Counted from the stretch's first letter, positions 25,701 through 61,898 are shown. The stretch: DNA of 64,000 nt from an uncultured Gammaproteobacteria bacterium (GCA_964543035.1 CAZIVL010000001.1:122000-185999); one strand, 5' to 3'. Notes: generated by a model not told the origin, from the letters alone. Program-made: numbers and translations.

Positions 25701-25956
25701 TAACTTGCCCATTTGCATGTCCGTTTGAGTGGACAGTGTCGCCCATAACTCTACCTTTATAGCCTGCAGTTTGAATTGCAGACAGAATTTTATCGCTAGT
25801 TACCTGTTGATTTCCGGCAACTAGAGTCCCAAGGCCTGATTTAAATTCCAAGTTCACATCCTTTACACCCGGAATTGAACTTAATTCGTCTTTGATTAAC
25901 AGCTCGCAGGAAGCACAGTGCATACCATCTACTTGAAATTGAATTTTTTGGTTCAT
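22768..25956 (-). CDS. copA: Cu(I)-translocating P1B-type ATPase with two N-terminal HMA domains and a roughly 200-aa C-terminal extension
   Basis: Two MHCxSC HMA motifs, TGES, CPC ([12 protein letters not shown]), DKTGTIT and [10 protein letters not shown]. An extra TM helix plus soluble tail follows the last canonical helix. Confidence 0.85.
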
Positions 25957-26186
25957 AGTGTCTCCTTTTGAGTCGCCTCATACGGCGTGCCGGTCAAACT
26001 TGCTTGAATTTGATCCAGGCTCAAATTTGAATTCGATTCGACCGTAGCCTTACTGGTTTTTAAATCAACGCTGACTGTTTGGACCCCATTTATGGCGCCA
26101 ATTCGTTTTTCTGAAACTTTTTTGCAAGCAGTGCAAGTAAGACCTGATAATGTAAATAGTTGTGTATACATGAGTATTCCTTTCAT
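25953..26186 (-). CDS. HMA-domain copper-chaperone-like protein
   Basis: A single CTAC metal-binding motif in an HMA-sized ORF; start overlaps the upstream gene. Confidence 0.6.
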
Positions 26187-39566: not shown

Positions 39567-41783
39567 TTATCTTTCTGAACCTTTAAAATCAGATAGCGTG
39601 GTAACCCTCTTGAGAGTTCTGGTATAAATCACAACTTTGGCGTCCTTCATGAGTTTTGTAGATAATTGTTCTGAAAGCTGGGTGTGTTTTTCTTGCGTTA
39701 GACGTTCTCGAATAAACTCTTTAGCATCTTCAAACGCAAGTTGTTTTGGCTCAGAACGGCCAAGCACTTCGACGATATAAATATACCCATTGGCTTCAAA
39801 TGGTGGCCCAATTTGTCCTTTGGGAATAACCTGCACTTGTTCGTGATATTGATGTTTTACGATTTCACCGACCACATTCATTTCTTCTTCAACCCACTCA
39901 GATACTTCACCACCTTTATCCTTTGTTTGCTCATCTTCAGAATACTGCTTAGCTACACTGGCAAAATCTTCACCTTTCTTAAGAGGTCCCGGCACAAGTT
40001 TTTTATACGCCTCATTTGCCTTTTCGAATGCTTTTTTGTGCTCGTCGTCTGTTTGGCTGTCAGAACTCCCAGCCCGAATAACAATTTGGCGAACTTTAGA
40101 TTTGGCCGGCATAACCAGCTCGGCTTTATTCCGATTGTAATAATCTTGCAAGTCCTTATCTTCGATTTTAATCTTTTCATCAACTTCTTCCTGTTCCAGC
40201 ATTTGGGCCAAGACTTTCAGTCGCATTTCATCTTTCCGCTCTTTCGTCTCGGTTTGCGACACCTGACTTAAACTGTCTTCATAGAGAAGCAGGCGCTCAA
40301 TGATTTTTTCAACCAGCGCCTGCTTACCCTCGGTGCCAGAATACGAAGTCAAGAAAGAAAGTGGCAGTTCCTGATATTCCTCCCAGAATTCACCTAGGGT
40401 AAACCTTTTACCGTTGACGGTAAAAAGCGTCCTGTCGGCATTGTCGGTATAGTATTTTTTTTCTGTTTCCGCCAACACTGCCGTTTGGACACTGGATTTG
40501 ACTTCTTCAAAACTCTGCTGCCTATCCGGTTGCTTGGAGATTAGCTTAACAATAGAGAAAGCATCTTTGTCAGTTATGACATCGCTTATCTGTTCTGGAT
40601 CTAACCGAAAAATGGCTTCTTCATAAGCAACATCCTGCTCTCCCTTGGTTTTGGTTTCCCCGGTCTGGGGAAGCGTTGAACTGCTTATTTCCTCATAGAC
40701 CTGACCAAAATCACTTCCCGAGCGGATTTTAGAAAGAGCTTGCTCGGCTTTTTCTTTAGCCTTTTTTTCGTCTGTGCCTTTTGGAATCCGGATCTCATGA
40801 ACCACTACCTGAGCTTTGACGAAATATTTATCCTTGTTGGCGTCATAGTAATTTCGTAGTTCCCAATCGGCTGGCACAGGAACAGCAAGTGTAGCTACGT
40901 CTTTGGTAATTGAAGCTCTGTTTTTGAGTCCAGTAATATAATTTTGAACAAACTGGTCTTCCTTCTCACTCTGAAGTTTAGTTTTTATTTCTTCACGGAC
41001 ATCAGTCAGGGTTTTATCGCCAAAATCTTTCTTGTTAGCCTCATAGTATGCACCTATATCGCCTTCGGTCACCCCAAGTTGGCCTTTGTGCATTTGGGCA
41101 TGTAATTCATCAAGATTTATTTCCTCTGTAATATGCTTCATCACGTGGGAAAATTCCTTGTCCTGGTCGGGTTTCCGGTTGGCTTGCCAGCGTTTGACGA
41201 TCTCATCGGTAATCATCTCCTGAACAATGAGTCCGTATCCTTGTGGACTCTTTAATTGTTTTCGATATTCCTCATCCTCAACAAGAGAAGCTAAGTGTTT
41301 CTCAACATCTTCGATGGTTATTCTGCCGCCGTCATAGGCAGCCACGACATTCGGTGCTGGTGGCCAGGGGGCAAAAATGTCCTCTCGGAATCTGAACACA
41401 AGAAATGCTGCGACTACTATTACACCCAAAATAATCTTCTTTTTTCGTGACAAATGAATGGTTGGTAGAGGAAAGCGGGACGGTTTGCTCTTCTCTGGCT
41501 GGTCTTCGCCCTCCATGGCATCAGGTGGCTGTACAGGATGAATTTCTTCTCGGAGAGTAACTGCTTCCGGCGGTTCAGTGACTTCTTTTTCTACAACCTT
41601 TTTCCTCGTTGGTGAAGGCTCCGGCTTTTTGGGAGCGGGTTTTTGTTTTTGGCTACCACCAGAAAAACCCAAAGATTGGCGTATATCGGTAAATATCTGG
41701 CCCCAGCCTTCGCTGGATTTGCCTTTATCGACCGTTTTCTGTTTGTGGTGGGAAGACATTGACTTTTGTTTCATTTCCTTCAA
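39567..41783 (-). CDS. PpiD/SurA-like membrane-anchored periplasmic chaperone with two parvulin-type PPIase domains and a K/P-rich disordered N-terminus
   Basis: One TM helix after a roughly 110-aa low-complexity region; two parvulin-like segments (KAQVVVHEIRI...; VRQIVIRAG...GGEVSEWV...NGYIYIVEV). Confidence 0.6.
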   Translation of the reverse strand: MKEMKQKSMSSHHKQKTVDKGKSSEGWGQIFTDIRQSLGFSGGSQKQKPAPKKPEPSPTRKKVVEKEVTEPPEAVTLREEIHPVQPPDAMEGEDQPEKSKPSRFPLPTIHLSRKKKIILGVIVVAAFLVFRFREDIFAPWPPAPNVVAAYDGGRITIEDVEKHLASLVEDEEYRKQLKSPQGYGLIVQEMITDEIVKRWQANRKPDQDKEFSHVMKHITEEINLDELHAQMHKGQLGVTEGDIGAYYEANKKDFGDKTLTDVREEIKTKLQSEKEDQFVQNYITGLKNRASITKDVATLAVPVPADWELRNYYDANKDKYFVKAQVVVHEIRIPKGTDEKKAKEKAEQALSKIRSGSDFGQVYEEISSSTLPQTGETKTKGEQDVAYEEAIFRLDPEQISDVITDKDAFSIVKLISKQPDRQQSFEEVKSSVQTAVLAETEKKYYTDNADRTLFTVNGKRFTLGEFWEEYQELPLSFLTSYSGTEGKQALVEKIIERLLLYEDSLSQVSQTETKERKDEMRLKVLAQMLEQEEVDEKIKIEDKDLQDYYNRNKAELVMPAKSKVRQIVIRAGSSDSQTDDEHKKAFEKANEAYKKLVPGPLKKGEDFASVAKQYSEDEQTKDKGGEVSEWVEEEMNVVGEIVKHQYHEQVQVIPKGQIGPPFEANGYIYIVEVLGRSEPKQLAFEDAKEFIRERLTQEKHTQLSEQLSTKLMKDAKVVIYTRTLKRVTTLSDFKGSER

Positions 41784-42858
41784 GTAACTTTAGATTAACC
41801 CGTTCTCCTGGTTTGACGATATAAGCAATGACTCTGGGAAATATCTTTTCCATGCGCTCCAAATACAATCGGAAGCGAGTTACTTGTTCTCCATAAATAC
41901 TACTGTTTGTTTTATATTCCGCTAAAATGCCAGTAAAAGCTACCGCCGACCCGCTGGCTTCGTTAATCTGCGCCTGAGCCGAGCTGCTAGCCTCAGTAAT
42001 CAGTTTTTGTGCTTGTCCACGCGCTTCGGGAATGATGCTATTTTTGTACCCTTCTGCTTCATTCATTGTTTTACTCTTGTCTTCTCTGGCACTTGAGACA
42101 TCACGAAAGGCATCAGCCACTTCATCTGGTGGATAGGCTTTTTGAAAGTTGACACTAACAACGGCCAGCCCGCTGTTATATGAGTCCAACAATGTTTGTG
42201 TTTCTTTCTGTAGGCGATTTAGGACGCTCTGGCGCTCTGAAGTAAGAATATTATCAACTGCTGTTTCGGCACTGATTTTGGTTACCGCAGCCCGTACCGC
42301 GTCGCGGACTGTCTGATAGGCAGCATAATCGATGTTGAATAAGTAATCAGCGGGGTCTCGTACTTGGTATTGGACGATGACTTCGTAGTCAATAATATTG
42401 GTATCTCCACTTAGAACTTGGAGTTTCCCTGGTTGTTCCACATGTTTCGGGTGTTCTGGTTCGGGACTCGAAAGACCGACACTCTCCCGCCTCACTTCAG
42501 AAACATTAACAATTGTTTCGCGATCAACGGGCCAAGGTAGGCGATAATGAAGTCCTTCTGATACTTTTGGGCTCACGACTTTCCCAAAACGAGTAACTAC
42601 TGCCGCTTCTCCTGATTTGACGATGTAAATACCCGATAGAAAATAAATGACTATTACGATTTTGACAATATTTCCTGAAACATAACGGGCATTGACGTGT
42701 TTAAAAGCAAGGCGAATATCCGTCATAGAAGATGATCCGTCAGCCGAACGGATTTTTTTCGTAGCAATTTGAACTAATCGTATAAATAAGCCAACGACTA
42801 CAAGTACACGTTTAGTAACCTGCGCCAATAATTTTTTTATGTTGTTTGTTTGTTCCAT
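41725..42858 (-). CDS. HflK-like SPFH/band-7 protein
   Basis: N-terminal TM helix, GEAAVVTRFGKV and a long C-terminal coiled coil. Confidence 0.75.
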   Translation of the reverse strand: MEQTNNIKKLLAQVTKRVLVVVGLFIRLVQIATKKIRSADGSSSMTDIRLAFKHVNARYVSGNIVKIVIVIYFLSGIYIVKSGEAAVVTRFGKVVSPKVSEGLHYRLPWPVDRETIVNVSEVRRESVGLSSPEPEHPKHVEQPGKLQVLSGDTNIIDYEVIVQYQVRDPADYLFNIDYAAYQTVRDAVRAAVTKISAETAVDNILTSERQSVLNRLQKETQTLLDSYNSGLAVVSVNFQKAYPPDEVADAFRDVSSAREDKSKTMNEAEGYKNSIIPEARGQAQKLITEASSSAQAQINEASGSAVAFTGILAEYKTNSSIYGEQVTRFRLYLERMEKIFPRVIAYIVKPGERVNLKLLEGNETKVNVFPPQTENGR

Positions 42859-42926
42859 ATAAAGATACCGACACTTATTTTGCTTATCTTTACTCCTATG
42901 TTCAGTGCTTTAACTAAATCCGCTGT

Positions 42927-43856
42927 TTATGGATTGAGATACTTCAGCAATTCTGAATCAGAGGGAAGAATAAGCGTTGTGCCATTATTTATGACCTTGT
43001 CGTACGACTCAAGCGTACGCAAAAACTGGTAGAATGCTGGGTCACGACCAAAGGACTGAGCATAAATGCGGATTGCCTGTGCTTCTCCCTCTCCTTTAAT
43101 TCGGTTTGATTCTTCCTGAGCTTTAGATAAAAGGGTGGTTTTTTCAGCATCCGCCTCAGCTCGAATCTTGGTCGCTTCCTCAGTTCCTTCGGACCTGAGT
43201 TGTCTGGCGATTTGCTGGCGTTCGGCTCGCATCCGCTGGAATACACTTTGCCTGTTTGCTTCAGGAAAGTTAAGCTGCTTGAGTCTGACATCGGCCACCT
43301 TAAAACCGTAAGCTCTGGTGCGTTCATCAGTCTGTTTGGTAAGTCCGGAGAGCATCTCGTCAAGTTTCATCTGACTTTGATCAGTGGTGACTAAGTTGGT
43401 CAGTTCATACTGTGATAGTGCCACACCAAGCTCAGAAGTAAGAATATCTGAGAGTCGAGACGATGCTCCTTGGGCGTCTCTGACACTTTTGAAAAATTGC
43501 ACCGGATCGTCTATCTGCCAAGTAGCATACGCTTCAACTAAGACATTTTTCTTGTCTTTGGTCAGAAATTCTGTTTGAGCGACATTCTGAACTTGTACTC
43601 GTTTATCCAGACGAATCAGATTTTGTAATGGATCGGGAAGTTTGGCATACAACCCAGGTTCTTTGATCGCTCGAATTGGACTGCCAAACTGAGAAACAAT
43701 AGCGTATTGGGTGCTGTCGACTTGAAATGCAACCAGTGTGGATATGATAAGCAAAAGTCCAACTATAATGCCTACCATAAATTTAGGCTGGCGCAGTGTG
43801 GACCAGTTAACTCTGCTTTTTGCTTGATCTATAAATTGAGATTGCCGTGTTTTCAT
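42927..43856 (-). CDS. HflC-like SPFH/band-7 protein
   Basis: N-terminal TM helix, QYAIVSQFGSP and a C-terminal coiled coil. Confidence 0.75.
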   Translation of the reverse strand: MKTRQSQFIDQAKSRVNWSTLRQPKFMVGIIVGLLLIISTLVAFQVDSTQYAIVSQFGSPIRAIKEPGLYAKLPDPLQNLIRLDKRVQVQNVAQTEFLTKDKKNVLVEAYATWQIDDPVQFFKSVRDAQGASSRLSDILTSELGVALSQYELTNLVTTDQSQMKLDEMLSGLTKQTDERTRAYGFKVADVRLKQLNFPEANRQSVFQRMRAERQQIARQLRSEGTEEATKIRAEADAEKTTLLSKAQEESNRIKGEGEAQAIRIYAQSFGRDPAFYQFLRTLESYDKVINNGTTLILPSDSELLKYLNP

Positions 43857-43870
43857 AAATTCGCCTCCTT

Positions 43871-45397
43871 TTAGGGTTGAGCAGTTTTTCCATTAGTAAT
43901 CCACAAATCAGTGGAGTTTGTTTCCACTCGTGGGTCGAGAATGTATTTTCTAATGTTTGGTAATACTTTCTCCAATGATTCTAGATACAGTCGTGTCCGG
44001 GTAACTTGCGGGGCAGTTTGGTAAGCTGCAAGTTTTTTACTGAACCGCTCGGCTTCGCCGGTTGCCAAAGCAATCTTACTTGTTTTCTCTGCAGTTGCTG
44101 TGGTTACTTGTTTGCTCGCTTCCCCTCGAGCCACTGCTACAGTTTCATTTTTATATGCCAAAGCTTCATTCATATACGTATTTTTGTCTTCTCGAGCGCT
44201 TGATACATCCAAAAATGCGTCAGCTACTTCGCTGGGTGGAGTGACGGAAAGCAGCTGGATATTGGCGACTTTTATGCCAGTGTTATGTTCCTCAAGTAAG
44301 CTTTGCGTTTTCATTGAAGTCTCAGCAAGAATTGCACTTCTACTTGCGGTCAGAAGATCGTCAACTCCTTTTTGCGCCACAACTGCTCTAAAAGCAGTTT
44401 CTGTTTCTTTGGCAAGCAAGTTTTCTGGACTTTGAGTACTGAAAAGATAATCCGCAGGATTGGTGATCGTATATTGGACGGTCAATTTTGTATTAATGAG
44501 ATTGGTATCTCCGGTGAGCACTAATGTGGCTTCGGTTTCTACTTGACGAACTTGGTCTGTATTCACTCTTGATATGGAGTCAATAAGGGGTACACGTATA
44601 TGAAGTCCAGAACCAAAGGTGCCAGCTACTTTTCCAAATCGCTGTATCACCGCTTGCTCACCGGCTTGTACGGTATAAACGCCTGATAGCAAAATGAATA
44701 CTGCTGCGATCCCACCTAGATAACCCAGTATTCGTTTATTGTGAAAAAGGGCCAGATGATGATGTCCTTCAAGGTGCAAGGGCAGCGATTGATTTGTTTT
44801 GAGGGCATGAATCGCCGATTCAGCAATTTCCCAACCAGAGGTGACGATGAGCATGATCACGAAAATCGCTGCTAGCTTATCAATGGCTGGAAATCCCACG
44901 GCCGCCGCAATTAATCCGACGACGACAAGGACTGAAGCGTAGAGATCCATACGTGAGTGGTAGCCACTGGCAATAAGACTGAGAGAATTAGTAGCACGAC
45001 CGACAAATTCTTTATACCGGGCGGTAAAGTAGGTTATAACAATAGTCAGAAATGCACCAATGGTAACTGGCCAGATATTTCGAAGATCTGGTGCTTCGGC
45101 AGCACCTGTCACTTCTCTAAAAATCTCAAGAGCTGAGAAAAACATCAGCCCTGAAACGATTAATGCCACGACATTTTCAATCGTTCCGGCTTGTAGTCGC
45201 CGTTTGGCTTCCCAAGCTGCTGATAAAAGCCCTATAAGTACAAAGACCGAAACAAACACATCACCGACTGAGTGCCAGGCACTGGCTTTGAGGGACAAAC
45301 TGCCCGATGAGGAAGAAAGAAAAAATTTAAGAAGAACAAGTACGATATTAGCGACAATGGTAACAACAATAGTTTTTTCTTTTCTATTCATAGCCAA
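43871..45397 (-). CDS. Fusion of a cation-diffusion-facilitator (CDF) transmembrane domain with an HflK-like SPFH domain
   Basis: CDF TM2 and TM5 HxxxD motifs (AWHSVGDV, GYHSRMDL), His-rich linker HLEGHHH, an extra TM helix, then GEQAVIQRFGKV and an SPFH core with coiled coil. Confidence 0.7.
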   Translation of the reverse strand: MAMNRKEKTIVVTIVANIVLVLLKFFLSSSSGSLSLKASAWHSVGDVFVSVFVLIGLLSAAWEAKRRLQAGTIENVVALIVSGLMFFSALEIFREVTGAAEAPDLRNIWPVTIGAFLTIVITYFTARYKEFVGRATNSLSLIASGYHSRMDLYASVLVVVGLIAAAVGFPAIDKLAAIFVIMLIVTSGWEIAESAIHALKTNQSLPLHLEGHHHLALFHNKRILGYLGGIAAVFILLSGVYTVQAGEQAVIQRFGKVAGTFGSGLHIRVPLIDSISRVNTDQVRQVETEATLVLTGDTNLINTKLTVQYTITNPADYLFSTQSPENLLAKETETAFRAVVAQKGVDDLLTASRSAILAETSMKTQSLLEEHNTGIKVANIQLLSVTPPSEVADAFLDVSSAREDKNTYMNEALAYKNETVAVARGEASKQVTTATAEKTSKIALATGEAERFSKKLAAYQTAPQVTRTRLYLESLEKVLPNIRKYILDPRVETNSTDLWITNGKTAQP

Positions 45398-45477: not shown

Positions 45478-46263
45478 TTATCTTATTAACTTATCTTCAA
45501 AGTCATGAAGTAAAAAAAGGCTGACATCATCTCGAGAAAATTCGCCCTCCTGAAATGGTTGTTCGATTTTTGTTATCAATCTAACAATGTATAAAAACAT
45601 GTATGAGATAAATCCGAACAGTACGAATGATTCCGGAGATCCTTCAGATTTAATAAACAACAAAAGGAATATTATTAAACATACAATTGACTGCCCAAGA
45701 ATAAATGCTGATGGTATAAATTGTGTTCGTTGAATGTGTAAAACACGTAGCACCGATCGTCTGATATTTCCCTGCTCAGTCTTTAATCTGACAAGATAGT
45801 TTGGAGGCATACCAAGCTGTTCCATTTCATAAAAATGTTGAGATAATTCGTCAATGGATTGTAAACACGGCTTCAAATTTATATGGTTTTGCTCATGGCT
45901 AATACCAAGGAAAAAGTTACTGATCACTTTTTTGAGAGTTTCTTTTAACCGCAAAATCTTAAACGTAGTTTTACCTTTTTTAAACAACTGCCCTTCTTCA
46001 AAAATATTTTCCAAAGATGCTCGAAGCTCTGAAGGTATCTTTTCTGCTTCTTTGTAATCAGTGATTAATCCTGACAAAAGAAAACCACATATAAACGTAG
46101 CTCCAGCTATAGCGCTTCCTGTAAGGGTATTAATTTCCAAAAACTCCCATTTAAAAAAATGTACTAAATACTTTATCAGTATCAACAGGATTACCCAGCC
46201 GATAGTTGTAATAGCAATATTAAAATGCTTGATACGATGGTGATTTAAAATAGTTTTAATCAT
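45478..46263 (-). CDS. Hypothetical membrane protein, possibly bestrophin/UPF0187 family
   Basis: N-terminal TM pairs and a C-terminal E.PF..G..S.DD(V/L) pattern reminiscent of bestrophin homologs; weak. Confidence 0.35.
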   Translation of the reverse strand: MIKTILNHHRIKHFNIAITTIGWVILLILIKYLVHFFKWEFLEINTLTGSAIAGATFICGFLLSGLITDYKEAEKIPSELRASLENIFEEGQLFKKGKTTFKILRLKETLKKVISNFFLGISHEQNHINLKPCLQSIDELSQHFYEMEQLGMPPNYLVRLKTEQGNIRRSVLRVLHIQRTQFIPSAFILGQSIVCLIIFLLLFIKSEGSPESFVLFGFISYMFLYIVRLITKIEQPFQEGEFSRDDVSLFLLHDFEDKLIR

Positions 46264-46267
46264 AGTC

Positions 46268-47200
46268 TTACCAAAATTTAAAGCCTTTAAGGATTCTCTC
46301 GTAGACCCGATATGGTTTAGGGCCGACTAGACCCTTACCGTTGATAAAAACCAGAGGGGTGCCATAAATATTTGTTTTTTCAAGTTGTATCCGTCTTTCA
46401 ATAACCGCGCTTTGCGTCTCAGAAGATTGACTGCAGGTATTTATAGCTGCAACATCATACCCAACGTCTTCGAGAATCTCATCGACAAATTCCTTCTTAG
46501 CTATGTCTTCCTTGCTATTTTCGAACAATTTATCATTGAATTGCCAGTATCTTTCCTTATCCTGCTGATAGGCACAATAACCGATTGGCAAGAGATACAA
46601 TGTTTCTTCCTTTACTGGGTAGTGGGCAAAAGTGTAGTTAACTTGGTTTTCGGAAATAAACTGCTTTATCAATGGATACGCTTTTCTAGTGTAATCGCAA
46701 CTGTAGCAACCAATGAGTACTACAGAGTCTTTTGAACCTTTATCAATATTTGGAAAAAGACTCAAATCAACACCTTTAAGGGTAACTTTGCTTTCATCTC
46801 CTACTCCATCCGAACAACTACCGCCAGTTTGAGAAACTTTATTATTTTCACCTTTAGGGTCAAGGGCGCAAAATCCTGATTTATTTAGGCCATTACAACT
46901 TCCATACATGTAGTAGTTGTATAAACCTTTCCCTGTCCAGAAAATGCTGGCCACTGTGGTTAGGAATAATATCCAAGACAGAAGTTCAAAGTGTCTGTTG
47001 ACGACTCTGGCTGCCACCTGAGAACGGGAAAGGAGCGTTCCCACCATCCGAGCTTTCATCTTTTCTTTAAACCCCGTAGTACACGGACGTAGTGTTATTC
47101 GGCGAAAAACACAATCAAATGCCTCCTTGGCCAACTGCCTGTGTGAGGCACTAAATATGCTGATAATTGATAAGGCGATAAACGCTAAAATGCAAAACAT
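46268..47200 (-). CDS. Membrane-anchored DsbA-like thioredoxin-fold protein (CxxC = CYSC)
   Basis: Two N-terminal TM helices, Cys-rich juxtamembrane segment, thioredoxin domain with CYSC. Confidence 0.6.
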   Translation of the reverse strand: MFCILAFIALSIISIFSASHRQLAKEAFDCVFRRITLRPCTTGFKEKMKARMVGTLLSRSQVAARVVNRHFELLSWILFLTTVASIFWTGKGLYNYYMYGSCNGLNKSGFCALDPKGENNKVSQTGGSCSDGVGDESKVTLKGVDLSLFPNIDKGSKDSVVLIGCYSCDYTRKAYPLIKQFISENQVNYTFAHYPVKEETLYLLPIGYCAYQQDKERYWQFNDKLFENSKEDIAKKEFVDEILEDVGYDVAAINTCSQSSETQSAVIERRIQLEKTNIYGTPLVFINGKGLVGPKPYRVYERILKGFKFW

Positions 47201-47202
47201 AA

Positions 47203-48399
47203 TTAGAGAACGCTTAATACTTTATGTAATTCTTTAACAAAAACTTCTGCTTCATCAAGAGTGTTATAAAAATAGACCGATGCCCGCACCGATCCGGGGA
47301 TTTCCCTGTCCGCAAACCAGGAATGTACGCAGTGTTGACCGGAGCGAACCATAATCTGTGAGGAGGCGTCAAGCATGAGAGCGATCTGATGATGGTCTTT
47401 GTCCGGAATATAAAAAGACACAATTCCGCCTCTTTCTTTGAAATCAGCCGGACCGATAATAAACAGATTGGGAATTCTCCGAAGTTCCCCAGTTATATAT
47501 TCATTTAACACTTGCTCCTTCTTTTGTATTTCGGCAAATCCAATCTTTTCCAGATATGAAGCCGCCTCACCTAATCCGATAATTCCTGCATAATCCTGCA
47601 GTCCTGCCTCAAACTTTTCAGGCGAAGGGAGAAACTCGCACGATTCATAAGTGGATGAGGAAACGGTATCACCACCGACTAAAAATGGCGACAATTTCTC
47701 CAAGAGCCCATATTTTCCGTAAAGGACTCCTGTACCAGACGGACCAAGCATCTTGTGGCCCGAGAATGCCATAAAATCAACATCCAGCTTTTGGACGTCT
47801 ATTGCTTGATGCGGAACAGCCTGAGCACCATCAAGAAGCACTAAAGCACCATGTTGGTGTGCCAAATGGATAACTTCGGCAGCTGGAATGCTTACACCGT
47901 CCAGATTTGAGGTCATGCCAAGAGCAACCAGTTTTACTCCCTTCTCAAGAGCTTTCTTATACGCTTCCATATCAAACGTGTTATCTTCGAGTGAACGGAC
48001 AATCCGGTGAGCAGTCCCGATTTTGTTGCGCAGAATCTGCCAGGGAATAAGATTGGAGTTGTGTTCCTTATCAGAAGTTAAAACAATATCGCCTTCTTTG
48101 AAGGCTAAGCTATTAGCTACCAGATTAATACTCTCAGTAGTATTACGAGTAAATACTATTTCCTCTTTTCGTTTTGCGTGTAGGAATTTAGCTATCTGTG
48201 TGCGTGCTTCATCACATTTTTGAGTGACCTTTGCTGCCAGATGATGGTTACTCCTGCCCCCGCACGCAGAATAATCTCGGTAATATTCAGTTATCGCATC
48301 AATGACCGATTGGGGACGCAAACTCTGACAGGCATTGTCAAAATAAATTTCTTCTTTTGAAATTACCGGAAAATCCTGTCTGATTTTTGTAATATTCAT
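47203..48399 (-). CDS. Cysteine desulfurase (class V aminotransferase, SufS/CsdA-like)
   Basis: PLP lysine in FSGHKMLGPSG; catalytic Cys in RSGQHCVH. Confidence 0.8.
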   Translation of the reverse strand: MNITKIRQDFPVISKEEIYFDNACQSLRPQSVIDAITEYYRDYSACGGRSNHHLAAKVTQKCDEARTQIAKFLHAKRKEEIVFTRNTTESINLVANSLAFKEGDIVLTSDKEHNSNLIPWQILRNKIGTAHRIVRSLEDNTFDMEAYKKALEKGVKLVALGMTSNLDGVSIPAAEVIHLAHQHGALVLLDGAQAVPHQAIDVQKLDVDFMAFSGHKMLGPSGTGVLYGKYGLLEKLSPFLVGGDTVSSSTYESCEFLPSPEKFEAGLQDYAGIIGLGEAASYLEKIGFAEIQKKEQVLNEYITGELRRIPNLFIIGPADFKERGGIVSFYIPDKDHHQIALMLDASSQIMVRSGQHCVHSWFADREIPGSVRASVYFYNTLDEAEVFVKELHKVLSVL

Positions 48400-48401
48400 A
48401 A

Positions 48402-50306
48402 TTAGTTTTTCTGGTAACCAAAATTAAATAATCTCAGACTGTTGACGACTACTAGGACGGTAACTCCTACATCGGCAAAAATGGCTAAAGCAAGACTGCT
48501 CTTTCCCGCTAGGGCCAAAAATAGAAAGATGGCTTTAACCGCGATAGCCGCACCGGTATTTATCCTAATCGTACTGCCTGAAACTTTGCCTAATCTGACT
48601 AGAAAGGGTATTAGCCCCAAGTTGTTATTCATAAGAGCTATATCGGCATTCTCAACCGCCACCTCTGAACCGATCGCCCCCATGGCAATGCCGACAGAAG
48701 CCGTTGAAAGTGAAGGCGCATCATTGACCCCGTCACCCACCATCGCTACATCTTTGTATTTGGTGACCAGATTTTTAAGCTGGATTACTTTCTCATCCGG
48801 TAGGAGTCTGGCGTGGACTTCATCAATACCGACTTCCTTAGCAACATATGAGGCTGCTGAAGCATTATCTCCGGTAAGAATTGCTGTTTTGACTTTTAAT
48901 TGGTGCAACTCCTTAATGGTAGAGGAGCTCTCGGGCCGGATTTCATCAACAATCCCGAGAACTCCTTTAATTTTTTTGTCGTCAGTGATAATAATAGCGG
49001 TTTTGCCTTCTTTTTCGAACCGCTCAACAATATCAACTGTTCGTTTATCTACCTTATGTTCTTCCATCACAAACTGAAGGGTCCCGATACAATGATGCTT
49101 ATCCACACACACCAGACATTCGCCTGAAATACCTTTTCCCATAATCGCTTTAAAGTTGGCATACTCGTGGTCTTTGATATCAGGGAAATTTTTCGAGCTT
49201 TCAACAATGCTCCTAGCAATCGGGTGTTCGGAAAAAGCCTCGGCTCCAGCTACACAAGCCAGAAGTTCAGCCTTCGTGTAACCGTTTAGAGGAATGACAT
49301 CGGAAACTACGGGTTCACCCTTGGTGAGGGTTCTGGTCTTGTCGAAGGCAATTGCCTTGACTCTGCCCATCTCTTCTAAAAACTGACCGCCTTTGATAAG
49401 AATTCCACGCTTTGTGGCATTGCCGATGGCTGAAAAGATAGTTATAGGAGTGGATATAACCAGGGCACACGGACAAGCAATCAAGAGGATTGTTAAGCTC
49501 TGGGCAAACCAAGGAGTAAACGGTTGGCCAAAAAAAAGAACAGGTATAGCTGTCAGGAAGAGCGCAAGCACTAATACTCCAGGGGTATAGTAAGAAGCAA
49601 ATTTTTCAATGAATCTAGCAGCCTGTGACTTACGCTCAGCCGCCTGAAAAGTCAAATCAACAATTTTGGCCAGTGTCGTATCTTTGGATACTTTAGTAAC
49701 TTTGATTTCCAAGTAGCCTTGGCTATTGAGTGTTCCAGCAAATACCGGCTCTCCTTCATATTTATTTTTCGGCAATGGCTCCCCGGTAATCGAGCTTTCG
49801 TCTACCAATGATTCACCTTTAATGACAACTCCGTCCAAAGGGATGTAGTCACCCGGTTTGATCACAACAATATCGTTAATGGCAATTTTCTCAATAGGAG
49901 TTTTGTTTTCTTGTCCTTTCAAAAGTGCGGCTTTAGGAGCTTTTTCCACTAGCTCTTCTAAAGCACTCTGGCTTCTGGTAATGCCGAACTCCTCCAGAGC
50001 CTCACTGACCGCAAACAGGACAATAATAATGACTGCTTCTTCGAGTTCTCCCAGATAGACTGCACCAAAGGTGGCCACAGTCATGAGTAAATTGATATTT
50101 GAGAATTTGAGTCTTGCAAGACTTTGTAGCCCACCAATAATTACTTCCCGGCCGAAGAAAAAGATGATGGCGGCAAATAAGGGATATTCGATAAATGCGG
50201 GTAAGTGAATGGAAAAAAGGGACAGAATCTCAAGAGGTATGATCAGAAGCAAAGTGGCAGCTAGCCGCTTGAACTTGGTTTCTTTAAGAATTTCTGAAAT
50301 AAGCAT
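48402..50306 (-). CDS. P1B-2-type (Zn/Cd/Pb) P-type ATPase lacking an N-terminal metal-binding domain; DKTRT in place of DKTGT
   Basis: CPC, TGEP, GDGVNDAPSL, TM7 N-x7-K and TM8 ADVG features; DKTRT checked in the DNA (gacaagaccagaacc). Confidence 0.8.
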   Translation of the reverse strand: MLISEILKETKFKRLAATLLLIIPLEILSLFSIHLPAFIEYPLFAAIIFFFGREVIIGGLQSLARLKFSNINLLMTVATFGAVYLGELEEAVIIIVLFAVSEALEEFGITRSQSALEELVEKAPKAALLKGQENKTPIEKIAINDIVVIKPGDYIPLDGVVIKGESLVDESSITGEPLPKNKYEGEPVFAGTLNSQGYLEIKVTKVSKDTTLAKIVDLTFQAAERKSQAARFIEKFASYYTPGVLVLALFLTAIPVLFFGQPFTPWFAQSLTILLIACPCALVISTPITIFSAIGNATKRGILIKGGQFLEEMGRVKAIAFDKTRTLTKGEPVVSDVIPLNGYTKAELLACVAGAEAFSEHPIARSIVESSKNFPDIKDHEYANFKAIMGKGISGECLVCVDKHHCIGTLQFVMEEHKVDKRTVDIVERFEKEGKTAIIITDDKKIKGVLGIVDEIRPESSSTIKELHQLKVKTAILTGDNASAASYVAKEVGIDEVHARLLPDEKVIQLKNLVTKYKDVAMVGDGVNDAPSLSTASVGIAMGAIGSEVAVENADIALMNNNLGLIPFLVRLGKVSGSTIRINTGAAIAVKAIFLFLALAGKSSLALAIFADVGVTVLVVVNSLRLFNFGYQKN

Positions 50307-50347
50307 AGTTTAATTGTACCGCGTAATGGTTTCATAGATCGATACAT

Positions 50348-50812
50348 TTACTCTTGTCTGAGATCCCCAATAAAGAGCTTTTCCAGCTGTGTTATAGCTT
50401 GTGCAGGATGCGGCCCTTTATTATTTGTCGGTCTATCATTAAATAAGGTTGTGGCATCTTTTCCGCAACCAGCAAGAACAGCCTTCCCTCCCGGGTGATT
50501 GGGAATAAACTCAGTAACGTCGTAGACTTTTCCTTCAATTGCCAGCCAGCAATCTGTCTCTAAATTATGTGTGGCAATTTCTTCAAGCGTATATGTTTTT
50601 GTGGCTGGTGTGGGGCTGCTAGAAATTTGAGATTCAACTCGATTCTTAGTGGTATCTGTATTTTGTGAAGGAGATGATAGTACAGGTTTTCTATTTGAAA
50701 ATAATAAAAATCCTCCACCCACCAGCAGAATGCCAATTATTACGACACCCATAACTACGGAATTTTTTGATTGCTTAGATTGATTATTTTGTTCGGTCTT
50801 ATCTGGATCCAT
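50348..50812 (-). CDS. Membrane-anchored cytochrome b5-like heme-binding domain protein
   Basis: HPGG motif within a YTLEEIATHN...VYDVTEF...HPGGK b5 core; N-terminal TM helix. Confidence 0.6.
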   Translation of the reverse strand: MDPDKTEQNNQSKQSKNSVVMGVVIIGILLVGGGFLLFSNRKPVLSSPSQNTDTTKNRVESQISSSPTPATKTYTLEEIATHNLETDCWLAIEGKVYDVTEFIPNHPGGKAVLAGCGKDATTLFNDRPTNNKGPHPAQAITQLEKLFIGDLRQE

Positions 50813-50827
50813 TTATTTCGCCTCCAT

Positions 50828-51952
50828 TTAGCAATCAGTTCCTAAGCCACCCACACAATTTTCAGTAGGTGGTTTACCCCGTTCTGGGCATTTTTCTGAA
50901 TAAACACAGGCTCTGTCGGTTATTTCTGATAACTGCTTGTCAGTTATCTCGCTAGCTGTTGCGCCAAAACTCATAACAATCCTGTCCAGATCTTTAAATT
51001 CGAACGCTCTCCAATTTCCTGCTTGTTTTTTTCCGTTTACATACCAACTAACTTCAGACGGGAAGTTTGCTTTCCAGGAGTCAATGAGCTGACCTAATGT
51101 AACACCGGTCTTATGTTTATGAATTACTTCTTCGGTATCTTTGTGTGAATGAATGTCTGGGTCTTTCTCAAAATAATCCGGATTGTCCTGGAGTAACACT
51201 CTCTTTCCATTCACATACAAAGCGAAATCGGCATGCTCGTGCACTTTCTCACCTGTCGATTGACCAGAGGGCTTAGGAGCTTTAAGAATGGCTGCATTGA
51301 TAAAGGTCTTAAAGTCCTCCGGAGTTTTGGGATTAGGGATTTTATCACCATTGAGAAAAAACGTTGGCGTGCCGGACACTCCCAATTTGGTGCCGGAGTT
51401 TTTATCCCGCTCAACCCTGTCTTTCACCTCTTTTGAGGCAACGTCTTTTTTGAACTGGTCCATATTCAAGCCGATTTGCTGAGCATAACCTTCAAATATT
51501 TTTGGGTCTGCAGCCGGTTTTTCTCCCCAGTTCTTCTGCTCTGCAAAGAGCTTATCATGCATTTCCCAGTATTTGCCCTGTCTGGCAGATGCTTCAACCG
51601 CAAGAGCAGCAGGTAAACCGTTTTTATGTCCAGGAAGCGGGAAATAGCGGTTGACAAAGCGAACGTCAGTTTTGAACTCTTCTGCCAGTTGTTTTACGAG
51701 CGGGTAATATGCACCACAAGCTTCACACTCAAAATCAAGATACTCGATAAGTGTTACGGATGCCTCTTTGTTGCCTTTAATGTAGTCATCAGGAACAACC
51801 TCTAATAATTTTTTCTGATCATCGGAGACTGGAGCAGAAGCTGAAGTAGGAGAATTTGAGGAACCCATCTTACTAGCAAAAAATACTCCCCCAATGAGAA
51901 GAACTACTGTAGCAATGATAATGCCGATAATAAATTTTTTGTCGCCACTCAT
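50828..51952 (-). CDS. DsbA-like thioredoxin (CEAC) with His-rich and Cys4 C-terminal extension
   Basis: TM anchor, LDFECEAC thioredoxin motif, C-terminal HEH..HSHKD..HKHK and C-x5-C-x11-C-x7-C. Confidence 0.6.
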   Translation of the reverse strand: MSGDKKFIIGIIIATVVLLIGGVFFASKMGSSNSPTSASAPVSDDQKKLLEVVPDDYIKGNKEASVTLIEYLDFECEACGAYYPLVKQLAEEFKTDVRFVNRYFPLPGHKNGLPAALAVEASARQGKYWEMHDKLFAEQKNWGEKPAADPKIFEGYAQQIGLNMDQFKKDVASKEVKDRVERDKNSGTKLGVSGTPTFFLNGDKIPNPKTPEDFKTFINAAILKAPKPSGQSTGEKVHEHADFALYVNGKRVLLQDNPDYFEKDPDIHSHKDTEEVIHKHKTGVTLGQLIDSWKANFPSEVSWYVNGKKQAGNWRAFEFKDLDRIVMSFGATASEITDKQLSEITDRACVYSEKCPERGKPPTENCVGGLGTDC

Positions 51953-52005: not shown

Positions 52006-52209
52006 CTATTTATCCCCCTTTTTCTCACCGCGCATAAAAAACGCCATAGCACCGCACATAACAGTACACCCCAAAAGAGGTGCTGCTGCTATTAAACCGG
52101 CAATGCCAATAGCAGGAACGAAAATAAGTAATGAGACAATAATAACTCCCAAAATAAGAAGAACTTTTGGATTTAGACATCTCCTACATGAATGTAATAA
52201 TTTATTCAT
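52006..52209 (-). CDS. Small Cys-containing membrane protein (CRRC, GCTVMCG), start overlapping the copA stop (ATGA)
   Basis: Start ATG at 52207-52209 overlaps the ATPase stop at 52206-52208. Confidence 0.35.
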   Translation of the reverse strand: MNKLLHSCRRCLNPKVLLILGVIIVSLLIFVPAIGIAGLIAAAPLLGCTVMCGAMAFFMRGEKKGDK

Positions 52210-54497
52210 ATTCTCTGCGTCCTTAATCGTAACGAGTTTGTGACCACCGAAACACTACTAAATCCCATTGCAGCTCCAGCAATTGCGGGGTTTAAAAGAA
52301 TACCGAAAAATGGATACAATGCTCCAGCTGCAATTGGAATACCAATGACATTATAGAAGAATGCCCAAAAGAGGTTCTGCTTGATAATACTCATCGTTGC
52401 TCTAGCTAACTTTACCGCTTTTGGTAGTTTAGAAATATGTCCCCCTAAAAGCGTTATCCCTGCTGACTCAATTGCTACATCGGTTCCTGTCCCCATCGCA
52501 ATCCCCACATCAGCTGTAGCCAAAGCTGGCGCATCATTAATGCCGTCACCCACCATTGCCACTTTATAACCTTCTTTTTGGAGTTTCTGAATTTCACTGG
52601 CTTTGTCTCCTGGTAAGACTTCGGCGATGACTCGATCTATACCTACTTGTTTAGCGATGTGCTGAGCAGTTCTTTTGTTGTCTCCTGTAAGCATTGCGAC
52701 TTTAATACCTTGCTTGTGAAGCTCCGCCACTGCTTCTTTTGCATCGTCTTTGATGGTGTCAGCAATACCAATGTAAGCAATAACGTGCTTCCTGTTCATG
52801 AAGACTACTGGTGTTTTCCCTTGTGAAGCAAACTTTTTAATCATTTCTTCATCAATTTTTACTTTGAGATCATCAACCAACTTAAGATTACCAGCATAAT
52901 ACTCAGTATCATCAATACTTCCCTTTAGCCCTTTACCTTCAATTGCCTCAAAATCTTTTACTTTATGGAGGCTAATTTTTTCATCCTTAGCTTTTTCAAC
53001 GACTGCTTGGGCTAGTGGATGTTCAGAATGGCTTTCTAGTGAAGCGAGGAGTTGCAAAATATCTTTCTCTGAATGAGAGCCAATTGCCTGAATATCAGTC
53101 ACTTCCGGTGCCCCTTTAGTAATCGTTCCCGTTTTATCCATGACAACAAAGTTGACCCCATTAAACTTTTCTAGACTTTCAGCATTCTTAATCAAGATGC
53201 CATTCTGAGCAGCTTTGCCAACACCGACAATAATAGCGGTAGGCGTAGCGAGACCCATTGCACATGGACAGGCAATGACCAGAATTCCCACAAAACTCAA
53301 AATACCGAGCGTTAGTGCCTGGGAAAATGGCATGAATTGAACACCAATCACCAACCAAAGTATTAATGTAATAACTGCCAGGACCAACACCGCTGGGACA
53401 AAAATGGCTGACACTTGATCGGCCATCCGTTCAATCGGTGCTTTGGATCCCTGAGCCTCCTCAACCATTTTAATGATTTGCGAAAGCATGGTATCACTGC
53501 CAACTTTAGTAACTCTAATCTGCAATGAGCCTTGTTTGTTAATGGTCGCTCCGATAACAGTATCCTCTGGTCCTTTATCTACCGGAATAGGCTCACCGGT
53601 GATCATCGACTCATCAATAGAGGATTTGCCTTCGATAATGACTCCATCCAAGGGAATCTTGGTTCCAGGTTTCACGAGCATAATATCGCCAACTATAACT
53701 TGATCGATGGGTAATTCCACTTCCTTGCCATCTCGAAGAATGAGAGCATTTTTGGCCTGGAGTCCTAAGAGTTTTTCTATGGCTTCACCAGTCTTTAACT
53801 TCGAGCGAGCTTCGAGGAATTTCCCGAGGGTAATAAAACCAATAACAACAATAACGACGTCATAATAATTTTGCTGGGTATTAACATAAGGAGCCAGCAC
53901 TTTATCAAATGCAGTTACACTAAAGCTGTAAAGGAAAGCCACCAACGTTCCAATCCCTACAAGCGTGTCCATATTCGCCACACGATATTTTATAAAACGG
54001 ACGATTCCTTGAAGATATGGAACCCCAATGACAAACATTGTATAGGTGGCAAAAATCGGCAAAAGATGATGGAAAAACTCCATGATGGCTTCCGGCATCT
54101 CTGGCCATAACCGTAGAGGGTCAGCTCCTATTTCCCAGGTCATGACAAAAATGCTAAAGGCAACAAAAGGCATGGCAATCTGAACGTGCTTTTTTAGCTT
54201 TGAGAGTTCCTGGAGTTTTTGCTCTTTTGCAGTTTGGTCAGAGGAAACCGGCGACATATCATGGCCGGCATGAGGATTGGGTGGATTTTCTAAACTATAC
54301 CCAAGTTTTTGAACCTGGTCATTCATTTGGGAGAGGTTGACCTTGTCAGCGTCGAATGAAACTTCGGCTTTTTCTGTACCGTAATTAACGTTGCAAGAAA
54401 CTATACCATCCAGTTTTTCAAGTTTGCGCTTGATAATGCTGGCGCAAGATGCGCAGTGCATCCCTTTAACTGGAAATGTTTGTTTTATCTCTCCCAT
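52206..54497 (-). CDS. copA: Cu(I)-translocating P1B-type ATPase with a single N-terminal HMA domain
   Basis: [40 protein letters not shown]. Confidence 0.85.
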   Translation of the reverse strand: MGEIKQTFPVKGMHCASCASIIKRKLEKLDGIVSCNVNYGTEKAEVSFDADKVNLSQMNDQVQKLGYSLENPPNPHAGHDMSPVSSDQTAKEQKLQELSKLKKHVQIAMPFVAFSIFVMTWEIGADPLRLWPEMPEAIMEFFHHLLPIFATYTMFVIGVPYLQGIVRFIKYRVANMDTLVGIGTLVAFLYSFSVTAFDKVLAPYVNTQQNYYDVVIVVIGFITLGKFLEARSKLKTGEAIEKLLGLQAKNALILRDGKEVELPIDQVIVGDIMLVKPGTKIPLDGVIIEGKSSIDESMITGEPIPVDKGPEDTVIGATINKQGSLQIRVTKVGSDTMLSQIIKMVEEAQGSKAPIERMADQVSAIFVPAVLVLAVITLILWLVIGVQFMPFSQALTLGILSFVGILVIACPCAMGLATPTAIIVGVGKAAQNGILIKNAESLEKFNGVNFVVMDKTGTITKGAPEVTDIQAIGSHSEKDILQLLASLESHSEHPLAQAVVEKAKDEKISLHKVKDFEAIEGKGLKGSIDDTEYYAGNLKLVDDLKVKIDEEMIKKFASQGKTPVVFMNRKHVIAYIGIADTIKDDAKEAVAELHKQGIKVAMLTGDNKRTAQHIAKQVGIDRVIAEVLPGDKASEIQKLQKEGYKVAMVGDGINDAPALATADVGIAMGTGTDVAIESAGITLLGGHISKLPKAVKLARATMSIIKQNLFWAFFYNVIGIPIAAGALYPFFGILLNPAIAGAAMGFSSVSVVTNSLRLRTQRI

Positions 54498-54511: not shown

Positions 54512-54727
54512 TCAGGCCGCTATAACTACCTCGTATTCAAGTTTTTGTATAACAGCAATGATTTGGTCATGGTGGACTTTATCAGGATCGTATGTAACGA
54601 CCGAAATCTGTTTTGCATAGTGAGTTTTTGCCTCTTTTACACCATCCAAATCCCCCAACTCAAAGTCAATGTTGATGGCACAACTCGTACAGTGCATGCC
54701 CACGATTTCTAAAGTTATTGTTTTCAT
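54512..54727 (-). CDS. copZ: HMA-domain copper chaperone (CopZ-like)
   Basis: MHCTSCA motif in a 71-aa ORF. Confidence 0.7.
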   Translation of the reverse strand: MKTITLEIVGMHCTSCAINIDFELGDLDGVKEAKTHYAKQISVVTYDPDKVHHDQIIAVIQKLEYEVVIAA

Positions 54728-55779
54728 ACGCCTTTATCTTGAACGACATTTATCTCTCCACGAAACATACCCATGCTGCACATAAAGGCAAGTGGACCAG
54801 GAGTTGTGGGAGCAGTAAATTCAAGTGTGTCCGATTGACCAATCGCAACAACCCGCTGCAAACCAAGCTTGGGAACTGTTAGTGATTGCGTACATCCGCC
54901 TCCACCTTGATTGACAATGTTGAATTTGACCTTTGATCCAGCTCTAACATTAACAACAGCCGGTTCTGTCCGATAACCGTTTTGGGTGATAAAAATAGTC
55001 GCCTCCTTCACCGTAGCTGAATTAGTTGTAGCTCCAGCTACCCGACCTTCATCACAAAAACTAATCGTGCAAGTAATACTGGTTAAGACATTTTCAAAAG
55101 TGAAGTTACTGCCACTAAGTGCCAAAGCTCCATTAAAGTTATAGAGGGCTACCAAAATAATTGCTGCAGCTGCCACCTTGTTAAAGGTTCCACTGAGTGA
55201 ACTGCCTAGTTTCCGTGCCGCATACCCAAGAAGGAAAAATAACGGAGAAGTTCCTAGCATAAAAACAAACATGGTAGTTGCTCCGGCAAGAGGAGAGCCG
55301 GTTGAAATAGCATAAGCCATCATTGCTTGTGTTGCTCCACAGGGAATGAGAACCGTCATAGCTCCAAGGAGTGCCGGACCAAAGACAGCTTTACTCTTTG
55401 ATTGATTGCGTACTAATCGTGTTAAAAATTTGGGTGGCTGAATTACAAAGTAGCGAAAAATCGGGTGAACCTGAAGAAGATTAAGCGCAGTACCGACCAT
55501 AAACACTACTGCTGCAAATTGGAGGAGGACGCGGGCAGAAAGTGAAAGCTGAAATACTGAACCAAGAGATCCTAAGAGTAAACCAAGAATGGTATAAGCC
55601 ACCAATCGAGTAATTAAAAACGAAAGAATGGGGAGAAGATGTCCAAATCGTTTTGCGTCTTCTTCAAGCTTATTCTCTTCCTGCTGAGCAATTGAGCTGG
55701 CGAGAAGTCCACCCTGAACAGCTAGACACGTTAGTCCACCTGCAAATAATCCTGTGATGAAAATTGAGAGTATGTCCAT
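54724..55779 (-). CDS. DsbD_2/CcdA-like Cys-bearing TM domain fused to one cupredoxin-like C-terminal domain (C-SMGM)
   Basis: GGLTCLA and LIPCGATQAM TM cysteines; C-terminal FMCSMGMFRGEI. Paralog of 26186-27928 without the fused HMA. Confidence 0.55.
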   Translation of the reverse strand: MDILSIFITGLFAGGLTCLAVQGGLLASSIAQQEENKLEEDAKRFGHLLPILSFLITRLVAYTILGLLLGSLGSVFQLSLSARVLLQFAAVVFMVGTALNLLQVHPIFRYFVIQPPKFLTRLVRNQSKSKAVFGPALLGAMTVLIPCGATQAMMAYAISTGSPLAGATTMFVFMLGTSPLFFLLGYAARKLGSSLSGTFNKVAAAAIILVALYNFNGALALSGSNFTFENVLTSITCTISFCDEGRVAGATTNSATVKEATIFITQNGYRTEPAVVNVRAGSKVKFNIVNQGGGGCTQSLTVPKLGLQRVVAIGQSDTLEFTAPTTPGPLAFMCSMGMFRGEINVVQDKGV

Positions 55780-60882: not shown

Positions 60883-61898
60883 GTACAACTCGCCTTATTA
60901 GTACATTTTGTGATTTAGTCCGGATCGACAGTCCATCGGGGCAAGAATCTGAAGTTGTCAAATTCATTTCAGAGGAGTTAAAAGAGTTAGGGATAAATTC
61001 AGAATCGGATGCGACTGGCAATTTGTTTGCTAGAGTTCCAGGAGTTGGTGACACAGTATTGTTATGTGCTCACATGGACACAGTAGAACCAGGAAAAAAC
61101 ATTCAGCCCAAAATCCATGACGACCATATAACCAGTTCAGGAGATACTATTCTTGGGGCAGACAACAAAGCCTGGATAGCAGCTATTATAGAAGCATTAA
61201 AGTCGACTCCGAAAAAAAAGACAAGGTCTTTGGAACTATTATTTACCACCCGCGAGGAGACCGATGGAGGAGTCAAAGAGTTTGACTGCCAGAAATTATC
61301 TGCAAAGACAGGCCTCATTGCCGACAGGGCAGCCCCAATTGGAACAATTGTCCTGTCATCGCCTTGGGTCACCGACCTTGTCTTTGAGTTTAGGGGAACG
61401 GCGACCCACGCGGCAGTTCCTGAAAAAGGGGTCAATGCTCTCACCAAATCGCTTTCAATATTATCGACCATTCCAGTAGGTCGCGTTGATTCAGATACGA
61501 CTATCAACATTGGGACAATCTCTGGTGGCACTGGAACAAATACTGTTCCAGATTTAGTAGTTGCCAGGGGTGAGATCCGTAGTTTTTCTAGAGAGTCTCA
61601 GGATACCTGGCTCAAAAAAATAAATCCCACTTCATCTCATCTCTATTGTCCAGGTTATACACATTTCACTTCCGATGCTTTTGTCAAAGATATTGTCAGA
61701 TTACATACACATCTCGGTATCAAGACCGATTTAGTCACTGCCCTCGGTGCCAGTGATGCCAATTTTCTAAATTCACAGGGGATTAAGGTCATAAACATAG
61801 GTTACGGTGCCGAAAACACTCATACAATCAGTGAGCGGATTGCAGTCAGTAGTTTAGAGAAACTATGCTCGCTTTTAGTTAAATATATTGTCTGTTAA
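60879..61898 (+). CDS. M20-family metallopeptidase (PepT/M42-like)
   Basis: LCAHMDTV and GADNKAW metal-ligand motifs. Confidence 0.65.
   Translation: MSTTRLISTFCDLVRIDSPSGQESEVVKFISEELKELGINSESDATGNLFARVPGVGDTVLLCAHMDTVEPGKNIQPKIHDDHITSSGDTILGADNKAWIAAIIEALKSTPKKKTRSLELLFTTREETDGGVKEFDCQKLSAKTGLIADRAAPIGTIVLSSPWVTDLVFEFRGTATHAAVPEKGVNALTKSLSILSTIPVGRVDSDTTINIGTISGGTGTNTVPDLVVARGEIRSFSRESQDTWLKKINPTSSHLYCPGYTHFTSDAFVKDIVRLHTHLGIKTDLVTALGASDANFLNSQGIKVINIGYGAENTHTISERIAVSSLEKLCSLLVKYIVC

Follow-up and report, generated by a model that had tools for sequence, protein, structure and literature searches.

The strict PROSITE signature of the phosphorylation loop in P-type ATPases reads D-K-T-G-T-[LIVM]-[TI]. 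Here we describe a pump gene that departs from it, located on the minus strand at positions 48402–50306 of a 64,000-nucleotide stretch of DNA deposited as an uncultured Gammaproteobacteria bacterium (GCA_964543035.1, CAZIVL010000001.1:122000-185999; hereafter the window). The motif of the encoded protein reads DKTRT, so that D-K-T-R-T-L-T fits six of the seven signature positions and the single mismatch is an arginine at position 4. The best solved relative of this protein is ZntA, the P1B-2 pump for Zn, Cd and Pb of Shigella sonnei and Escherichia coli (PDB 4UMV and 4UMW; 359 bits, roughly 34% identity), in which C392, C394 and D714 are metal ligands and K693 is the built-in counter-ion of P1B-2 pumps (PMC10246665). 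Another described relative is sCoaT of Sulfitobacter (PDB 7QBZ; 355 bits), a short P1B-4 pump that lacks a classical HMA domain. In human ATP7B, the position in question is occupied by Gly1030 of DKTG(1030)T, and Gly1030Asp is listed as a missense allele of Wilson disease (PMC8411542).

When ZntA and the window protein are aligned over the whole core with HMMER, without gaps at the motifs, DKTRT sits directly on the DKTGT of ZntA, and residues C278, C280, K591 and D612 fall on C392, C394, K693 and D714, respectively. The two proteins also share the CPC motif in membrane helix 4 (M4), the M5 lysine, the M6 aspartate, the TGE, SxHP, TGD and GDGxNDAP motifs and a DES segment in the actuator domain (A-domain). 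ZntA differs in having DKTGT and an N-terminal HMA domain, and in lacking a Cys/His hairpin that the window protein carries in its nucleotide-binding domain (N-domain). sCoaT resembles the window protein in its fold and in its short length without a classical HMA domain, but has DKTGT, a different transmembrane signature with no aligned M5 Lys/M6 Asp pair, and no hairpin. A CopA-type pump encoded in the same window (52206–54497) likewise has the same fold and a TGEP motif, but its DKTGT is canonical, it possesses an HMA domain, and its membrane signature, CPC/YN/MxxSS, is that of Cu(I) pumps. Whereas an aspartate at this position of ATP7B is a disease allele, a basic residue there is the selected norm in the family to which the window pump belongs.

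The open reading frame (ORF; 1,905 nucleotides, 634 amino acids) is complete, and no in-frame start lies upstream of it. Its translation contains AIAFDKTRTLTKG, in which the loop reads D322-K323-T324-R325-T326 (49329–49343), with D322 as the predicted phospho-acceptor. Arg325 is specified by an AGA codon at 49332–49334. An earlier note, made from the sequence alone, had reported both the arginine and its AGA codon, but had placed the codon six bases away at 49338–49340, where the AAG codon of Lys323 resides. Residues 1–70 contain no Cys, and a Pfam scan of the 634-residue protein detects neither an HMA domain nor any other metal-binding domain at the N terminus, which agrees with that note's description of a pump lacking such a domain.

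Domain models place the protein among the heavy-metal pumps. Pfam matches are found for E1-E2_ATPase (PF00122, 166 bits against a cut-off of 28.1) and HAD hydrolase (PF00702, 113 bits against 26.4), and the NCBIfam models TIGR01494 (273.6 against 62.3), TIGR01525 for heavy-metal P1B pumps (555.5 against 346.25) and TIGR01512 for the cadmium family (498.5 against 313.5) are all well exceeded. In contrast, scores for the ZntA equivalog models fall far below their cut-offs (NF033775, 431 against 1240; NF008262, 495 against 1005), and therefore the pump is not a ZntA orthologue. NCBIfam holds no model specific to pumps with DKT[R/K]T. The superfamily hallmarks are present as T174-G-E176, which with P177 forms the dephosphorylation loop of the A-domain (49776–49787), T478-G-D480 (HAD motif II, 48867–48875), K506 and G524-D-G-V-N-D529, which continues to A-P531 (HAD motif IV and Mg2+ site, 48714–48737). 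Features of the P1B group, apart from the TIGR01525 score, comprise eight long transmembrane helices (MA, MB and M1–M6 in the P1B scheme) in the AlphaFold2 model, the M4 metal-binding motif C278-P-C280 (49467–49475) and the P1B nucleotide-binding motif S359-E-H-P362 in the N-domain (49221–49232). Finally, the P1B-2 residues C278, C280, N583, K591, D612, G614 and N622 align with ZntA without gaps, and each of them is invariant among the family members described below. These include N583-x7-K591 in M5 (48534–48560), with K591 equivalent to the ZntA counter-ion K693, and D612-x-G614-x7-N622 in M6 (48441–48473), with D612 equivalent to the metal ligand D714 (PMC10246665). The claim of the earlier note that a Zn/Cd-type pump with intact TGEP, CPC, GDGVNDAP and Zn-class membrane residues carries DKTRT is thus borne out by translation, domain models and alignment to ZntA.

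The AlphaFold2 model (predicted local distance difference test score 79.5, predicted template modelling score 0.72) was compared with solved structures using Foldseek; the top matches are all P1B pumps, among them ZntA, sCoaT and CopA, with ZntA ranking first. Arg325 lies within a short helical turn (residues 323–327) directly after the phospho-acceptor. Both the residues of its membrane helices and its scores against the domain models make the protein a P1B-2-type ATPase, and the signature residues point to Zn, Cd or Pb as the class of substrate.

The arginine proved to be common to a large group of pumps. All 120 of the best homologue clusters (61–100% identity) read DKTRT, giving a clearly positive answer to the suggestion in the earlier note that homologues be aligned to see whether arginine is conserved in a clade, and loci from GTDB species representatives still read DKTRT at identities as low as 46%. 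When 1.84 billion cluster representatives (50% identity) were scanned with HMMER, the search returned DKTRT proteins as its top matches, with DKTGT pumps beyond them; among the best 150 matches, position 4 of the motif is G in 138, R in 9, K in 1 and A in 1. A search seeded with a Gly-bearing member (L022) contributed a further 68 R, 1 K and 2 G, and one seeded with a Chlamydiae-labelled member (L026) contributed 74 R, 41 K and 5 G. We defined the family by a shared, family-specific insertion in the N-domain, which yielded a pooled sample of 329 distinct proteins. Position 325 is R in 279 of these, K in 43 and G in 7, and no other residue occurs.

Proteins with the insertion group together in a neighbour-joining tree, in a clade whose most recent common ancestor spans 224 members plus a single sequence without the insertion, showing that the family is monophyletic. 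Parsimony on this tree makes R ancestral and requires about 23 exchanges between R and K, with K alternating with R in a sister sub-clade, and five to six changes to G. Outside the family, R arose twice independently in ordinary pumps (P0146 and P0251) and A once (P0242). Family members have no HMA domain and a median length of 633 amino acids, compared with 770 in the nearest outgroup. Roughly one-quarter of them (L022, P0276, P0280, P0106, P0127, P0140 and about 50 others) carry a short Cys-rich tail of 10–30 residues at the N terminus, such as MSTCSCDCSEKEK, which is not a folded HMA domain; the window pump has no such tail. In full-text literature searches, neither DKTRT nor DKTKT turned up in a paper on P-type ATPases, and nothing specific was found in the literature on P-type ATPases of Patescibacteria or on mutagenesis of the motif glycine.

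Residues expected of a working pump are retained throughout the family. In the 224 aligned members from which conservation was counted, the catalytic residues D322, K323, T324, T326, TGE, TGD, K506 and GDGxND are each kept in at least 222, and most are invariant: the D, K and both T residues of the phosphorylation loop occur in all 224, and the TGE loop shows T in 223, G in 223 and E in 224. The nucleotide-site residues S359, H361, P362, G390 and G392 are invariant or nearly so, and in the membrane metal site CPC, N583, K591 and D612 are each present in 224 of 224. All of the residues needed for the Post-Albers cycle (D322, K323, T324, TGE, TGD, K506, GDGxND, SxHP and GxG) are therefore intact.

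The window gene is also under strong purifying selection. Compared with its counterpart at locus L001, the proportion of differing non-synonymous sites (pN) is 0.052 and that of synonymous sites (pS) is 0.770, giving a pN/pS of about 0.07; against the closest genomes, non-synonymous divergence spans 0.05–0.19 whereas pS reaches 0.75–0.88. With pS at 0.75 or above, synonymous sites are saturated, and we accordingly report pN/pS rather than dN/dS. The ORF is full length and free of stops at about 30 related loci, and across related loci the arginine is written with all six of its codons (AGA 13, CGA 6, CGC 5, CGT 4, CGG 2 and AGG 1), a pattern that can arise only through selection on the amino acid. 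These data strongly support the first of three options raised in the earlier note, a divergent functional pump, over the sequencing error and the decaying pseudo-enzyme that it offered alongside. We consider it likely that the protein is a working export pump for heavy metals of the Zn/Cd/Pb (P1B-2) type, from a family in which a selected basic residue has taken the place of the DKTGT glycine.

In such a pump, metal would be bound at CPC and D612, D322 would be phosphorylated by ATP, and the phosphoenzyme would be dephosphorylated through the TGE loop, as in ZntA. The overall mechanism would therefore be a known one, and what appears new is a selected change in the catalytic loop together with a probable additional metal site. 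Since R alternates with K, it is charge that seems to be conserved rather than arginine itself. Furthermore, the arginine codons can reach a dozen other residues by one nucleotide change, yet only Lys and Gly are observed. We take this to mean that a positive charge is selected at position 325; a basic residue there is the feature by which this large family of short metal pumps is marked throughout. Given that only R, K or the rare ancestral G is found, residue 325 would most likely make an electrostatic contact at the catalytic interface.

To identify a partner for this contact, we screened for positions that change whenever glycine returns at 325. Asp169 (49800–49802), in a VDES segment of the A-domain five residues before TGE, is the sole position conserved among basic members that is altered in at least three independent Gly lineages. 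It is Asp in 319 of the 322 family members with R or K, but Asn in four of the seven Gly members, which represent three of five independent Gly lineages (L022/P0276, P0436 and P0465). In the DKTGT outgroup (n = 141), Asn (78) and Asp (57) are both frequent. Parsimony places six Asp-to-Asn events at position 169 within the family, three of which lie on branches in the Gly state, which make up approximately 5% of the tree length. By a crude binomial estimate, P is about 1e-4 with one outgroup branch counted and about 2e-3 without it. The association between positions 325 and 169 is suggestive rather than conclusive.

If the association reflects contact, Arg or Lys at position 325 of the phosphorylation domain (P-domain) and Asp169 of the A-domain would form an ion pair when TGE docks on the phosphorylated aspartate, in E2P-type states, and this pair could tune the turnover of the phosphoenzyme. 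Asp169 is the best-supported partner for Arg325, although we propose the pairing only tentatively and would not be surprised if it proved wrong. Several observations weigh against it. The proposed contact is based on covariation in three to five Gly lineages on an approximate neighbour-joining tree. Asp169 is common in ordinary DKTGT pumps, including ZntA with its DES segment, and thus must have roles independent of Arg325. Of the five Gly lineages, two still have Asp169, and Asn169 is found in three members that carry R. One of the pumps outside the family that acquired R, P0251, also has Asn169, and so the arginine is not strictly dependent on Asp169. Lastly, and with regard to the reading as a working pump, the pathogenic ATP7B allele at the same motif glycine (PMC8411542) indicates that this position is sensitive in other P1B pumps.

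Other candidate partners and co-adaptations were set aside. Asp402, at the tip of the N-domain hairpin, is replaced by S or N in the L022 Gly lineage, but it is unchanged in every one of the five Gly members from the second sub-clade. TGEP, a lysine at position 180 and an NNN sequence in place of 'DD' correlate with the clade but are not tracked by the Gly revertants or by the independent R lineages. Within the family, position 177 after TGE is P in 121 and S in 95 of the 224 members, position 180 is basic in 191, and Asn at positions 560 and 562 is family-specific. TGEP is unremarkable because the CopA-type pump of the window, with its canonical DKTGT, has it as well, and the sister sub-clade mostly has TGES; likewise, ZntA carries HNH rather than DD at the NNN site. 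The ordinariness of TGEP had been overlooked in the earlier note, as had the alternation of R and K in the sister sub-clade and the Cys/His hairpin of the N-domain.

The strongest competing explanation for the basic residue is that it binds the nucleotide, at the beta and gamma phosphates of ATP, or else the acyl-phosphate or transition state, instead of the A-domain. Residue 325 would then supply a positive charge that is missing from P1B N-domains. Contact with a phosphate is plausible because P1B pumps lack the conserved N-domain lysine of other P-type ATPases (PMC10654040), and such a role would fit both the restriction to R, K or ancestral G and the position of the residue, three places past the phospho-acceptor in the helical turn. 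The N-domain of the family is also remodelled next to its GxG nucleotide motif. However, this explanation leaves the covariation with Asp169 without a cause, and ordinary P1B pumps operate with no residue of this kind. We regard it as a minority possibility, somewhat less probable than the Asp169 pairing.

It is less probable still that Arg325 is a tolerated substitution, fixed by history and facing solvent, with no specific role and with weak or epistatic constraint. The five to six returns of glycine within the family, together with the two appearances of R and one of A outside it, do indicate that both states are viable. Yet 98% of the 329 proteins keep a basic residue, and the roughly 23 swaps between R and K are accompanied by not one change to S, T, Q, H, P, L, C, W, I or M, all of which are equally a single nucleotide from arginine codons. 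The use of all six arginine codons is also difficult to reconcile with a residue under little constraint.

A pump decaying into a pseudo-enzyme, or an entire family that has lost ATP-driven transport, is very improbable. The pathogenicity of ATP7B G1030D shows why such a proposal might be entertained, but it runs against the low pN/pS at saturated synonymous sites, the retention of catalytic, nucleotide-binding and metal-site residues across hundreds of proteins, the full-length, stop-free ORFs at some 30 related loci and a conserved operon context. As for a sequencing or assembly error, AGA does differ by one substitution from the GGA that would restore glycine, but we discount this almost entirely: the 1,905-nucleotide gene, AGA included, assembles independently from Sequence Read Archive runs SRR16481186 and SRR16481187 with zero mismatches to the genome, and R occurs in 279 distinct relatives, written with six codons.

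A second distinguishing feature of the family resides in the N-domain. The hairpin C397-L-V-C400-V-D-K-H-H405-C406 (49089–49118) is an insertion relative to ZntA, appearing as a gap in the alignment, and this Cys/His cluster is absent from both ZntA and the nearest DKTGT outgroup. In the AlphaFold2 model, residues 392–408 form a beta-hairpin (strands 392–397 and 404–408) whose loop holds the cluster, just after the GxG motif. Conservation within the family is high for Cys397 (224 of 224), Cys400 (224 of 224) and His405 (214 of 224) and lower for Cys406 (182 of 224). His380 (49167–49169), a putative fourth ligand, is family-specific as well, being present in 223 of 224 members and variable in the outgroup. 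Residues H380, C397, C400 and H405 probably form a Cys2His2-like metal site beside the nucleotide pocket. This site could be structural, or it could be a built-in sensor that replaces the missing N-terminal domain.

The pump gene lies in a tight co-directional array (45478–51952) with spacers of 2–41 nucleotides, an arrangement conserved in relatives. In order, the array encodes a DsbA-like protein, a cytochrome b5-like protein anchored in the membrane, the pump, a cysteine-desulfurase-like class-V aminotransferase (with a spacer of 2 nucleotides at this gene), a second DsbA-like protein with an N-terminal membrane region and a membrane protein without an assigned family. The membrane region of the DsbA-like fusion resembles VKOR, a label not confirmed by Pfam. 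The combination of pump, cysteine desulfurase and DsbA fusion recurs at nine loci (L001, L002, L004, L005, L011, L018, L019, L025 and L030), such that the Zn/Cd-type pump travels with cysteine desulfurase and thiol-oxidation genes.

About 35 kb of surrounding sequence holds three further copper-type P1B pumps, a CDF-Band7 fusion, DsbD-cupredoxin fusions and two two-component systems. Within the window, the DKTRT pump is the only P1B pump with a Zn/Cd/Pb signature, which argues that it is the working pump of that class in the cell. Several other genes of the window were also noted. A 751-residue P1B ATPase at 33702–35957 (minus strand) has an N-terminal HMBD ('TCPMHP...CPKCGM') and a canonical DKTGT, with CPD (VIACPDALGLATP) as its M4 motif in place of CPC, CPH or SPC. 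A 1,062-residue copper-type P1B ATPase at 22768–25956 (minus strand) matches the HMA model twice and is extended at its C terminus by about 200 residues that have no Pfam match. At 43871–45397 (minus strand), a CDF (Cation_efflux) transporter is fused to a Band7/SPFH domain, and two more Band7 genes follow (41725–43856). Two genes, at 26186–27928 and 54724–55779 (minus strand), join a DsbD-like transmembrane domain to a cupredoxin-like domain, one of them with an added N-terminal HMA domain. A class-II (Lys/Asp/Asn-type) tRNA synthetase with a fused C-terminal DUF2000 is encoded at 61888–63789 (plus strand).

The source labels of the family are mainly those of Patescibacteria (WWE3, Beckwith-, Shapiro- and Woesebacteria, Microgenomates, Paceibacterota and Moraniibacteriota), with further members from Chlamydiae-labelled and other metagenome-assembled genomes (MAGs). 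The window itself resembles WWE3, with 90% identity at the pump protein and a gene order in common with the complete RAAC2_WWE3_1 genome (CP006914), and the host of the pump is accordingly best described, on these comparisons, as a WWE3-like Patescibacteria genome. Several TPA-assembled MAGs titled 'uncultured Gammaproteobacteria' or 'Pseudomonadales' (loci L001, L003, L005, L008, L009, L014, L015, L017 and L020) encode pumps 58–92% identical to that of the window, some in a WWE3-like gene order, and L001 is a contig of 950 kb. The Gammaproteobacteria and Pseudomonadales labels of these MAGs look wrong, and the genomes probably belong to Patescibacteria instead.

The DKT[R/K]T pumps represent a well-populated exception to a motif considered invariant in textbooks, although the role we assign to the arginine is inferred from patterns of conservation. 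A more speculative proposal, which we think has perhaps the same modest prospects as the nucleotide contact discussed above, is that the basic residue and the hairpin together constitute a new regulatory module, integral to P1B pumps that have no metal-binding domain. If this model is correct, the hairpin would act as a sensor of cytosolic metal beside the nucleotide pocket, and the basic residue would latch the A-domain via Asp169, or the nucleotide, and so gate phosphoenzyme turnover. On this view, replacing a glycine held to be invariant would have served a function throughout an entire bacterial radiation.

Even apart from this proposal, the family as a whole escapes strict motif patterns, and pumps that lack the usual N-terminal sensor may possess a metal site in the nucleotide-binding domain. 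The natural revertants to glycine, along with the covarying aspartate of the A-domain, provide a ready-made set of mutations bearing on the role of this loop position in phosphoryl transfer and dephosphorylation. For Patescibacteria, the metal homeostasis genes are read correctly when a gene of this kind is taken to encode a predicted active pump and not a pseudogene.

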